This document shows, in pieces, positions 3,091-5,261 of a stretch of DNA of 64,000 nucleotides (the stretch's first letter is position 1; each line of letters starts with the position of its first letter). The stretch is from an uncultured Pseudomonadota bacterium (GTDB lineage: Bacteria; Pseudomonadota; Alphaproteobacteria; RF32; CAG-239). A program made the translations under genes and the position numbers. The stretch lies in assembly GCA_902788365.1 (NCBI GenBank), contig CADAJN010000003.1:58656-122655 (forward strand). The letters are read 5' to 3'. The notes under the pieces were generated by a model that saw only the letters and a program-made list of their open reading frames with translations, did not search any database and had not been told where the DNA came from.

Positions 3091-3579
3091 ATGAAAAAGT
3101 TGGTTTTGATTTTAGAACTTATTTTAGGTTTGTGTGCCAAAACAGAGGCGAAAATTTACCACGGCATTGATATTGATGCAGTGTATGAGAGCAGTGACTG
3201 GAGTAGTAAAGAGAAGATAAAAGAAATAATTGATGATTATACTTTATTGCTACAATATGAAAAAGAACTGCCTTTATGTTACCAAAATTCAGAAAAGTTA
3301 TCATGTATAAACAACTTAGCTGAAAACAGTATAAAACATTTTTATGTTGGTAATACCAATGATAATTTAAAAAATTATAATAATTATGTTAAATCTACAT
3401 ATGCATCTTCTGGTATTCTTTATTGCTTAAACAAATATAAAGTCCCATCCGGAACAATGTGCAATCAAGAAAATAATGCTCATGTATGGAAAATCATTGA
3501 AGAATATATTAACGAAATGTTGCAGCAAATCAAACAAGACATCCTTAAATACAGTTTCATTCAAAATTATAAAGATTAA
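3091..3579 (+). CDS. Secreted hypothetical protein, Cys-containing
   Basis: Signal peptide MKKLVLILELILGLCAKTEA. AT-rich. Sits in the islet between the MATE gene and tRNA-Val. Confidence 0.5.
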   Translation: MKKLVLILELILGLCAKTEAKIYHGIDIDAVYESSDWSSKEKIKEIIDDYTLLLQYEKELPLCYQNSEKLSCINNLAENSIKHFYVGNTNDNLKNYNNYVKSTYASSGILYCLNKYKVPSGTMCNQENNAHVWKIIEEYINEMLQQIKQDILKYSFIQNYKD

Positions 3580-3609
3580 AGAAAGGAGTTATAAAATACT
3601 CCTTTCTTT
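3578..3609. terminator. Bidirectional rho-independent terminator
   Basis: Perfect hairpin AAAGAAAGGAG-N10-CTCCTTTCTTT with flanking T/A runs, between convergent genes. Confidence 0.7.
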
Positions 3610-3613
3610 AATT

Positions 3614-4099
3614 CTAATAAGTAACATGGTATCCATTAGTTCTCTTATTCCAACCTGTTCCAAAATATTGATAATTCTTGTTGTTTCTATCTTGCTCCTT
3701 TACTAAATTTTGATACCTGTACAAAAATTCTTCATAATCAATTTTTTGTAAAAGATTTAATGTCGTATTACCGATAATATCCCCAACGGGATTTATTCCT
3801 AAAGCACGGTGAGTTGTTTCTATAGCATTTTGAGGACTTGTTCGAACCCCGTGGTCAAATACAAAACCGCGAATTTCTCTTGGTAATCTATTAATACCAT
3901 TCCAATTCCAGACTTCTTTGTATAATATTGCATTTGCACGTTCTCTGGTTAGATTTTTAATATCTTCATTAGGATGATACCTTTTAGCAATTCCCATATT
4001 TGTTTCACCTCCCGGATCCTTCGAATTATTTACATATCCTTTTTCATTAGGAATTACATATTCATGTAATGCTTTCTGGTAATCTTCATCATTTTCCAT
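3614..4099 (-). CDS. GH108-family lysozyme-like protein (phage-type N-acetylmuramidase N-domain plus peptidoglycan-binding region)
   Basis: N-terminal motif EKGYVNNSKDPGGETNMGIAKRYHP matches the GH108 signature EGGYVNDPxDPGGxTxxGI. Confidence 0.7.
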   Translation of the reverse strand: MENDEDYQKALHEYVIPNEKGYVNNSKDPGGETNMGIAKRYHPNEDIKNLTRERANAILYKEVWNWNGINRLPREIRGFVFDHGVRTSPQNAIETTHRALGINPVGDIIGNTTLNLLQKIDYEEFLYRYQNLVKEQDRNNKNYQYFGTGWNKRTNGYHVTY

Positions 4100-4308
4100 T
4101 TGGTCGATAATTCCTTAGAAAAACCCTCCCCATAAAGTGAATAATCTACTTTTTTAGCTTTAGTCGTATCACTTACCACAATTGCTTTATCGTTTGCGGC
4201 ATATAAGGTAGCATCTTTGGTGTCAAATTTGGTCGGTTTCAGCTCGTCTATCGGATGAAGACCGGATAAGTCTATTTGTAACCGCTTATGCTCGCTCTTT
4301 TGCGGCAC
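4054..4308 (-). CDS. Small hypothetical ORF overlapping the GH108 start. Possibly a prophage remnant or spurious
   Basis: 84-aa ORF overlapping the next gene by 46 nt. No motif. Confidence 0.2.
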   Translation of the reverse strand: MPQKSEHKRLQIDLSGLHPIDELKPTKFDTKDATLYAANDKAIVVSDTTKAKKVDYSLYGEGFSKELSTKWKMMKITRKHYMNM

Positions 4309-4439
4309 ATACGGTTCCGCCCAGCACCGACAGTTATAGTCCTCTCCCGGGCTTCTTGCTTTGTAAATTCTTGCTGCACTTCGTTTGCAATCATTAACTG
4401 CGCTTCGGTCACTCGTTTTCTAAATTCGCTGCGCGTCGC

Positions 4440-4802
4440 TTATGCTAGCTTGGTAAAAACAACAGGAGCAACTGTTGTTTTTATCCTCGCGCCTTCCGGC
4501 AGAATGTGCCAGTTAAATATCTTGCCCTCACGTTCTTTGTGTCTGTCTCTTACTTTATCGTCTCCCTTCGTGCGCCAAATGTAATAATCATCGGGATTCT
4601 TTTGCATATCGTCTGTTAATATTCGCCCCAGCCGCGGATTTGGTGCCTCACCGTCAAGCACATCTATCTCTTTTTGCGCATCGTCATCTTTATAGCGCGG
4701 ATCCAAATAATACCACTCGCTCTGCCCTTTACGACGTTCGCCTCGTTTCAATGGCTTAAAGCCGTGCATTACCTGATAAATATCATCTCTGATTTTTTTC
4801 AT
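4440..4802 (-). CDS. Phage head morphogenesis (Mu F / SPP1 gp7-like) C-terminal domain fragment. Likely truncated remnant
   Basis: DDKVRDRHKEREGKIFNW resembles the conserved Mu F-like motif (VRPSHxxLDGKVF). Only about 120 aa versus about 400 aa for the full-length family. Confidence 0.5.
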   Translation of the reverse strand: MKKIRDDIYQVMHGFKPLKRGERRKGQSEWYYLDPRYKDDDAQKEIDVLDGEAPNPRLGRILTDDMQKNPDDYYIWRTKGDDKVRDRHKEREGKIFNWHILPEGARIKTTVAPVVFTKLA

Positions 4803-4972
4803 CTTTATTATTCCTTTACATCTGAAACTCGCTTATATAAGAAATATATTATATAAGATAAGAAAAATCAATTCTAAAATAATAAAAATATTATAAGTAA
4901 AGTAGCGCTCTTTCAATATGTTACATTTGAAACAGCTGTGGATATATACGGGAAAAATTTTCTATCAGCCAC

Positions 4973-5009
4973 AAAAAACCACCCTCTCGGGTGGTCTTTA
5001 TTGGTGGGC
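4973..5009. repeat. Direct repeat copy A: terminator hairpin plus 8 nt of the tRNA-Val 3' end (att-like)
   Basis: AAAAAACCACCCTCTCGGGTGGTCTTTATTGGTGGGC duplicated at 5156-5193. Confidence 0.7.
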
Positions 5010-5155
5010 TTGTTCGGTTGTCCTTCGTTTTTTTACTAAAAAAACTTCGTTCCATCGGCGCTCATTCGCTTGTGCTCACCGGCACACTGCCGTGTGCCTT
5101 TCGCTTGATTCCGAACTCCCTTTCTCGGGCGTTCTCGCGCCTCAGCGCTAACCAC
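5010..5155 (-). other. Decayed tRNA-like segment between the duplicated att-like repeats
   Basis: Contains GGGAGTTCGGAATC, similar to the tRNA-Val T-arm GGGAGTTCGAACC. Not a foldable tRNA. Confidence 0.35.
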
Positions 5156-5185
5156 AAAAAAACCACCCTCTCGGGTGGCTTTTAT

Positions 5186-5261
5186 TGGTGGGCGCTGAGA
5201 GGTTCGAACTCCCGACCCTCTCGGTGTAAACGAGATGCTCTTCCAGCTGAGCTAAGCGCCC
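5186..5261 (-). tRNA. tRNA-Val (anticodon TAC)
   Basis: Minus strand reads GGGCGCTTAGCTCAGCTGGAAGAGCATCTCGTTTACACCGAGAGGGTCGGGAGTTCGAACCTCTCAGCGCCCACCA. Cloverleaf has anticodon loop TTTACAC and an encoded CCA. Confidence 0.9.

Follow-up and report, generated by a model that had tools for sequence, protein, structure and literature searches.

MuF-headed toxins represent a predicted route, so far hardly tested, by which phage capsids would carry toxins from one bacterium to another. As polymorphic toxins they have been treated by Zhang (2012, PMC3482391) and Jamet (2017, PMC5576092). In the latter study they are prophage-borne and belong mostly to Firmicutes; more than half of their predicted toxin domains are nucleases and 20% are metallopeptidases, ADP-ribosyltransferase and RelA-like domains are also frequent, and the text makes no use of the words lysozyme and peptidoglycan. 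A second described element that concerns us here is the RtT RNA of Escherichia coli (RF00391), of whose role little is known. The present study deals with a region of an uncultured alphaproteobacterium (RF32; CAG-239) that lies at positions 2950-5261 of a 64-kb window, the window being the whole stretch of contig CADAJN010000003.1 that was analysed, with position 1 as its first letter. The initial annotation had described this region as a degraded prophage at the 3' end of a transfer RNA (tRNA) gene, tRNA-Val, and all of the features that it listed were found in place or displaced by a few bases. We read them differently. With a probability of roughly 70%, the region holds two unrelated things: a toxin-immunity cassette (2950-4802), in which the toxin is broken and its partner intact, and a tRNA-linked repeat unit (4973-5193).

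The MuF fragment, two small open reading frames (ORFs) and the GH108 ORF of the cassette are pieces of one toxin gene, now a pseudogene. In a tblastn search, the intact counterpart of this gene product, P0080 (349 residues), aligned with the minus strand in three collinear segments and three different frames: residues 1-104 with 4802-4491, residues 106-184 with 4353-4111, and residues 180-349 with 4126-3617. The first piece (4491-4802, minus strand, frame -3) encodes the N-terminal part of a mini-MuF domain, residues 1-104, and is 67% identical to P0080 and 93% to P0001; its ORF continues to a stop at 4440. The second (4111-4353, minus strand, frame -2) carries the end of the MuF motif, PGEDYNCRCW, and a conserved linker that reaches to the start of the variable tip, and its segment 4168-4351 is 90-92% identical to other strains. 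The third (3614-4126, minus strand, frame -1), which had been called as an ORF at 3614-4099, is a GH108 muramidase tip with 80% identity to P0080. The gene is thus interrupted twice. One interruption is a type-2 repeat element of 137 bp (4354-4490, minus strand, with a hairpin at 4454-4483), identified by strain comparison as an insert, that cuts the MuF domain in front of PGEDYNCRCW; the other is a frameshift of 1 nt located in 4111-4126, where GEGFSKE meets (F)IDQ. The stop at 4440 lies inside the insert. Since an independent assembly (L002) has the identical split ORFs, the breaks are not sequencing errors. The toxin of the window is dead, and of the two genes the one presumed to protect is alone intact. 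The small ORF that had been listed as a gene of its own is therefore a frame of the broken toxin gene.

Both domain assignments made earlier held up. The 3614-4099 product matches PF05838 (GH108) with E=4e-16 and 59.7 bits. The catalytic glutamate of GH108 lies in an EGGY motif; here the motif reads NEKGY, with the glutamate kept and the first glycine changed to lysine, as in the intact P0080. Intact GH108 fusions were found in five proteins (P0080, P0094, P0096, P0112 and P0115). What did not survive is the view of the lysozyme-like ORF as a separate gene, possibly retained for use by the host: it encodes the toxin's C-terminal domain, put out of frame by the frameshift, and the intact, retained gene is the partner. 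The 4440-4802 product scores 24.9 bits against PF04233 (Phage_Mu_F), below the cut-off of 29.6, because the inserted element splits the domain; intact alleles score 45.5 and 45.6 bits, and the MuF region matches phage minor head proteins with up to 52% identity over 57 residues (E=6e-15), so that the phage homology claimed for this product is confirmed. Exact look-ups of the 120-residue fragment and of one window protein returned nothing.

The partner gene (3091-3579, plus strand) converges on the toxin gene, and the two are separated by a hairpin (3567-3620; inverted repeat I1, terminator-like site 3612-3575) that is probably a two-way terminator. Its product, already recognized as a secreted, cysteine-containing protein, has 162 residues, a hydrophobic N-terminal leader and four cysteines that are invariant in 46 aligned homologues. 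The protein is 42% identical to the convergent neighbour of P0112, an intact MuF-GH108 toxin of another species, and belongs to a family of 117 members of about 162 residues that has no match in Pfam. An AlphaFold2 model (mean predicted local distance difference test score, pLDDT, 87.8) is an all-helical bundle behind a low-confidence N-terminal leader helix; with this model, a Foldseek search of the Protein Data Bank gave a best E value of 1.2 and no usable neighbour. Across loci a small exported convergent ORF always lies beside the gene for the toxin, and partner type tracks tip type. Because the partner co-varies with the toxin in this way, we presume, from homology and context, that it is a periplasmic immunity protein for the GH108 tip. 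Inspection of the sequences found no signal peptide in the toxins and one in each of the partners, which is the arrangement known for toxins that attack the cell wall after entering the periplasm from outside, pesticin with its immunity protein Pim being an example (PMC3390615).

Comparison among strains shows the cassette to be an allelic locus. The response-regulator protein encoded next to it was looked up in public assemblies, yielding eight syntenic contigs of the same species from rumen metagenomes. Four of the eight have a single Phage_Mu_F protein of 339-371 residues and a convergent ORF of 137-149 residues between the MatE gene and tRNA-Val, and most of those that span the locus hold a two-gene cassette at the same place with the toxin tip swapped. 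Strains whose response-regulator gene is identical carry intact alleles of 366-371 residues at this MatE/tRNA-Val locus, and both the tip and the convergent partner differ among them. Relative to the other strains, DNA identity in the window is 96-99% up to 3115, that is, into the signal-peptide codons of the 162-residue ORF; it is lost over 3116-4167, and is back at 4168-4351 and from 4502 on. The homology breakpoints at 3115 and 4168 thus delimit a swapped segment (3116-4167) that comprises the toxin tip and the mature part of the presumed immunity protein. The guanine-plus-cytosine (GC) content drops to 25-32% across 3000-4000, below that of the flanks. At the protein level, the intact toxins share residues 1 to ~175, which include NWHIPPTGGHPGEDYNCRCWAEPY and the linker, and then diverge. 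Strains swap tip and partner together, recombining within conserved flanking stretches: the signal-peptide codons on one side and the linker on the other.

The same modularity extends well beyond the species. A protein search returned 241 relatives in which one conserved N-terminal head is joined to variable C-terminal tips of the GH108, Pesticin-like or VgrG3-like_C type or without a family name; the named tips (GH108, Pesticin/GH24-like and VgrG3-like_C) are all muramidase-type domains. One allele reaches 27.9 bits against the Pfam Pesticin family (cut-off 25.8), and the tip of P0021 is a VgrG3-like_C domain (PF21277) at 105 bits. The cassette stands alone among housekeeping genes both in the present species and in seven further chromosomal contexts, and in other species it occupies unrelated chromosomal sites that are not beside tRNAs. 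In three loci from human gut and rumen (L030, L031 and L032), one full toxin gene is followed by small ORFs and truncated tips, forming orphan tip/immunity arrays; in L032 a homologue of the GH108-type partner stands behind a Pesticin-type toxin.

A phage ancestry of the cassette is indicated by a viral contig. Among the 80 viral loci returned by a scan, L053 (IMG/VR uncultivated virus genome 3300028797_006165, 1-16375) was the sole one to hold a full-length relative. Its genes run in the order portal, amidase, large terminase, mini-MuF-lysozyme, convergent 158-residue partner, Stealth_CR2-like protein and major head protein. The toxin is 51% identical to allele P0014 of the present species and its partner 44% identical to that of P0014, a comparison of type-B partners between phage and chromosome. 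As the pair lies between the terminase and the major head protein, the origin of the cassette is phage. Two parts of the earlier proposal, decay and phage derivation, therefore stand, the first in the toxin pseudogene and the second in L053. The phage or prophage setting beside portal and terminase genes that goes with MuF toxins was seen in L053 alone, and neither in the window nor in the seven other chromosomal contexts.

The position of the pair in L053 raises the possibility of a system that works at phage entry. A MuF-lysozyme virion protein would open the cell wall when DNA is injected, the partner would exclude superinfecting relatives by inhibiting their lysin, and the host would keep the protective inhibitor. 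In L053 the pair forms part of the head module and the partner is convergent, in the manner of a moron (an accessory gene that has been inserted into the genome of a phage); in the window the partner alone is intact; orphan partner genes accumulate in relatives; and the tips are all cell-wall hydrolases. However, exclusion alone fails to explain why full-length toxin genes are kept at many stand-alone chromosomal loci that are distant from any phage genes, and joint swapping of tip and partner, together with orphan tips, is a hallmark of competition toxins (Zhang 2012, PMC3482391). On balance we consider this explanation unlikely.

The toxin-immunity interpretation would give the following picture. 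An intact toxin of ~350 residues consists of a phage MuF-type head (~120 residues, ending in HPGEDYNCRCW), followed by the conserved linker and by a tip that is exchangeable and of the peptidoglycan-hydrolase kind, here GH108. The head may serve to have the toxin loaded into the capsid of a phage or of a phage-like particle. Following ejection into the periplasm of a neighbour, the tip would cut the cell wall, and cells with the matching partner, a small Sec-exported protein that would block its cognate tip in the periplasm, would be protected. One could also envision a toxin that is released and imported in the manner of pesticin, with an N-terminal half that binds a receptor and drives import across the outer membrane, and a MuF similarity that is a mere relic. 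Size and layout do match pesticin, a protein of 357 residues with an N-terminal import half, a T4-lysozyme-like C-terminal domain and the immunity protein Pim (PMC3390615), and the allele that hits the Pfam Pesticin family adds to the likeness. Against this, a score of 45 bits and the identity to phage minor head proteins mark the N-terminal domain as a true MuF core, and in L053 it stands where a phage head module has its MuF gene; similarity to receptor-binding domains or a TonB box did not turn up in searches of which none was aimed at either. A pesticin-like mode of action seems to us very unlikely.

The second component of the region begins at the tRNA gene itself, tRNA-Val(tac), which lies on the minus strand at 5186-5261 with its 3' end at 5186, as annotated earlier (ARAGORN; Rfam RF00005, 64.9 bits). 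Two direct copies of a 37-nt repeat follow it (5157-5193 and 4973-5009, minus strand), identical at 35 of 37 positions (95%). The repeat consists of the last 8 nt of tRNA-Val (TGGTGGGC on the plus strand) and an intrinsic terminator hairpin. In the proximal copy (repeat family D1) these 8 nt belong to the tRNA and the hairpin corresponds to a terminator-like site at 5183-5158; the distal copy, found by direct-repeat search, has its tRNA 3' end copy at 5002-5009, an exact 8-nt match 184 nt downstream, followed by a second terminator. The core of the repeat occurs twice in the 64 kb, against no occurrence expected from shuffles; a terminator shared across the genome, which would have counted against the earlier view, was therefore rejected.

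Between the copies lies the body of a type-1 unit (5010-5156, minus strand), with a T-arm-like stretch and a conserved structured core. This is the segment of 146 bp that had been called a decayed tRNA-like sequence: the resemblance is real, GGGAGTTCGGAATC corresponding to the T-arm GGGAGTTCGAACC, and is part of a repeat unit. The core reads AAGCGAAAGG, a hairpin, G, a second hairpin and GAGCGC. The Val unit was detected by a sequence-only nhmmer profile (E=1.8e-26) and by covariance model R1 (95.2 bits, E=8.5e-24), and was itself one of the training sequences of both; its fold has a z-score of -4.2. The unit body is 98-100% conserved across strains; in some of these a further, incomplete copy brings the number of units to 1.2 or 1.65. 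Two other candidates were set aside: for the 146-nt segment with its CCA-like end, neither ARAGORN nor Rfam returned a two-piece or decayed transfer-messenger RNA, and for the core (GCGAAAGG ... CCGATGAGCG) no hammerhead ribozyme family was found even at E values up to 10.

These results bear directly on the idea with which the region was first explained, namely a prophage that had entered the 3' end of tRNA-Val, leaving the 37-nt repeats as remnants of its attachment (att) sites and the MuF, GH108 and secreted-protein genes as scattered survivors. MuF and GH108 domains are typical of phages, the viral contig has a homologous pair in its head module, and the GC content of the cassette is below that of its flanks, all of which would suit such a history. 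Yet the copies, spaced 184 bp apart, enclose the 146-bp unit only, with every phage-like gene beyond the distal copy, and the same layout recurs behind tRNA-Pro, Thr and Arg without phage genes. According to precomputed Pfam calls, the eight syntenic contigs hold MatE, the cassette, the response regulator, pilin and similar genes only, with no integrase, as the initial annotation had noted for its region, and no phage gene beyond the cassette. Other strains hold alleles of this locus in which both cassette genes are intact, the cassettes of other species are not at tRNAs, and the tRNA-Val 3' sequence was absent from all fetched viral loci. An intact prophage at this tRNA-Val, which might have been found elsewhere, was seen in none of the related contigs; most of those that span the locus have the cassette instead, and L006 has unrelated sequence. 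The 37-nt repeats are the two ends of one tRNA-linked repeat unit, not att sites bracketing a prophage, and we regard integration of a prophage at this tRNA as highly improbable. For annotators, it follows that a MuF or lysozyme match beside a tRNA with repeats is insufficient for a prophage call.

tRNA-linked units are found behind most tRNA genes of this genome. In the window, type-1-layout units lie behind four of the five (Val, Pro, Thr and Arg), tRNA-Gly having none, and share the order tRNA, terminator, body, tRNA 3' end copy, terminator. Three tandem type-1 units, with one terminator each, lie directly 3' of tRNA-Pro(cgg) at ~9050-9520 (plus strand), a stretch that also has the highest GC content (0.52-0.54) of the first 12 kb; other strains have one unit only at this site, that of L008 being a recombinant of units 1 and 3. 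Behind tRNA-Thr (56797-57166, minus strand) there are two 158-nt units, 97% identical and with a period of 158, which end in an 18-nt or an 8-nt copy of the tRNA end. Behind tRNA-Arg (30297-30510, plus strand) there is a single 184-nt unit with an internal 29-bp duplication, ending in a 17-nt copy. Exact copies of the tRNA 3' end in the window thus measure 8-18 nt: 8 nt at +184 for Val, 17 nt at +184 for Arg and 18 nt at +158 for Thr. Covariance model R1 did not detect the Thr and Arg units. The type-1 family also occurs in 10 further loci from metagenome-assembled genomes (MAGs) of rumen Alphaproteobacteria, where it lies behind tRNA-Ser, Arg, Pro, Thr and Lys (L013 being the Lys case), and a core-motif scan of the genome collection found it confined to rumen Alphaproteobacteria MAGs. 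A literature search for "tRNA-linked repeat" returned nothing useful.

With the covariance model, 32 units were recovered at E<1e-4. Pairing holds for 90.7% of cells in the core helices, where compensatory change is seen in 12 pairs; the covariation score was equalled in none of 500 shuffles, and slid controls are 22-37% paired. The covariation therefore supports the core helices. Unit copy number varies among strains, most simply, we suppose, through unequal recombination between the repeated blocks of tRNA end plus terminator. A closing helix between the 5' end of the unit and its tRNA-end copy, compared with shuffles, was significant in the Lys and Pro(tgg) units and not in the Arg, Pro(L020) or E. 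coli units, nor, as discussed below, in the Val unit; because of these four we make no claim for it.

The element that broke the toxin gene represents a second repeat family. The insert is absent from the intact alleles L001 and L003 and present in L002 (with a further 27 bp) and L015, measuring 165 bp in both of these, and it is similar to repeats in L006 and L019. The family, type 2, was found in 19 rumen metagenome loci (L033-L051), mostly away from tRNAs and sometimes in tandem; its copies are scattered among rumen Alphaproteobacteria. Its members, about 127-165 bp long, have an A/T-rich hairpin, then GACGACGGGCGAAG, then GCGAATTTAG..CGAGTGACCGAAGC, and end in GCAAGA; Rfam has no match for them. 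Direct repeats of 27-70 nt flank 6 of 20 distinct copies. In L016 a type-2 element joins the MuF gene ~57 nt further upstream, and several "orphan toxin" ORFs proposed by gene finders begin inside a type-2 element. In L006 a type-2 element forms the unit body behind tRNA-Val (457-827). This contig (1-980), with its identical response regulator, has an array of type-2 units and an unrelated 107-residue ORF after the tRNA; the tRNA acceptor end differs by one base (TCATCGCCCACCA), and the ORF has no similarity to any of the toxins or immunity proteins collected.

It is tempting to speculate that the tRNA-linked units and the 137-bp element form one class of small non-coding mobile DNA that settles at hairpin-bearing sites, above all the end of tRNA genes from T-loop to terminator, and copies tens of target bases, the E. 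coli tyrT/RtT repeats being a distant example. Occupancy and copy number do differ among strains, a type-2 unit sits in a tRNA-derived frame at tRNA-Val in other strains and within coding sequence here, and the direct repeats around 6 of 20 distinct type-2 copies also speak for it. Counting against this proposal, no transposase or integrase was found linked to the units, the similarity between types 1 and 2 amounts to a few short motifs, and homology to the E. coli repeats is without statistical support. We think a single mobile class rather improbable.

Several points weigh against the interpretation as a toxin-immunity cassette beside an independent repeat unit. The partner fold has no match among solved structures, and a role as inhibitor would follow from gene context. 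The sequences themselves establish the structure of the genes, the swapping of alleles, the co-variation of the partner, the phage homologue, and both the distribution and the conserved fold of the repeat family; the proposed toxicity, immunity and route of delivery derive from anatomy and from the named analogues, and a function of the repeat units would likewise be an inference. Pesticin-like import or a virion entry lysin would fit the same anatomy. Most members of the toxin family are found away from a prophage, with no delivery machinery visible nearby. As regards the unit, the tRNA-end copy of the Val unit measures just 8 nt, and the closing helix between its two ends is not significant against shuffles. 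Finally, the repeat units themselves could be scars of site-specific integration, which would keep part of the prophage idea alive for the units.

A few further features complete the region. Upstream of the toxin gene lies an AT-rich stretch (4803-4972, minus strand) with a promoter-like site at 4916-4887, which varies more among strains than the repeat unit. At the opposite edge of the cassette, 13 codons reading MAEEYYNCRCFTF and a stop (2950-2991, minus strand) are, on translation, the stub of an orphan toxin tip, the start of a lost module; P0111 starts MAEEYYNCRCWAEPYVPQK. A short repeat, D3, which pairs 2961-2987 with 4323-4349, is explained by the stub being such a remnant. The stub overlaps a promoter-like TTAAAA-17-TATAAT (2950-2978, plus strand) upstream of the presumed immunity gene and is kept in all strains. 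Directly after the CtrA-like response regulator comes a gene for a PilS/bundlin-like type IVb pilin (6185-6859, plus strand); synteny with L052 (5593-6294) predicts another such gene, which was not located in the window. An unrelated tandem array (17769-18158; period ~107/215, 3.2/1.8 copies) lies ~650 nt upstream of tRNA-Gly.

How do the two components compare with known systems? The repeat units recall the RtT repeats (rttR, RF00391) of the E. coli tyrT-tyrV region, which also lie directly 3' of a tRNA, on the same strand and in tandem, and have a T-arm-like GGTTCG..TC.AGCG stretch. The E. coli unit is 178 nt long with a 19-nt tRNA-end copy; the units described here measure 158-184 nt, with copies of 8-19 nt family-wide. 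They differ in that each of the alphaproteobacterial units has its own intrinsic terminator and that they occur at many different tRNAs. The Rfam RtT model gave no hit at the gathering score: the cut-off is 45 bits, the third Pro unit scored highest with 15.2 bits, and the Val unit gave no hit. In the opposite direction, the nhmmer profile of the alphaproteobacterial units found nothing in the E. coli tyrT region and covariance model R1 gave 11.7 bits at best, in the tyrT-tyrV spacer, leaving the E. coli units undetected. The tRNA-linked units are a look-alike of RtT, possibly a distant relative, and offer a second, much richer example of this layout for testing its origin and function.

The toxin can be set beside three systems. 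With pesticin/Pim of Yersinia pestis (PMC3390615) it shares a size of ~360 residues, a lysozyme-like C-terminal half that in pesticin acts in the periplasm, and a partner that, like Pim, would be a periplasmic immunity protein; pesticin is plasmid-borne, however, and its N-terminal half is an import module with a TonB box, directed at FyuA, whereas here it is a MuF core. With type VI cell-wall effectors it shares the VgrG3-type tip (PF21277), which is found on the same head, and the combination of a cytoplasmic toxin that lacks a signal peptide with an exported, here presumed, immunity protein; there are no type VI genes in the neighbourhoods examined, and the carrier is MuF rather than VgrG, PAAR or Rhs. 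The third is the MuF polymorphic toxins, which have the same N-terminal PF04233 and exchangeable C-terminal toxin domain and an adjacent immunity gene, to which the partner gene would correspond; at least one present member lies in a phage head module next to portal and terminase genes. The differences are that MuF is cut down to ~120 residues, that the tips are peptidoglycan hydrolases, that the presumed immunity protein is an exported one whose gene lies on the opposite strand, and that most cassettes stand alone on the chromosomes of gut and rumen Alphaproteobacteria. Judging from its sequences, we file the family as a variant of the MuF polymorphic toxins. The question arises which particle, if any, carries a MuF-headed toxin that has no phage genes nearby. 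So classified, the family would extend MuF toxins to Gram-negative Alphaproteobacteria of gut and rumen, to cell-wall-cutting tips with exported immunity, and to free-standing loci with orphan arrays.

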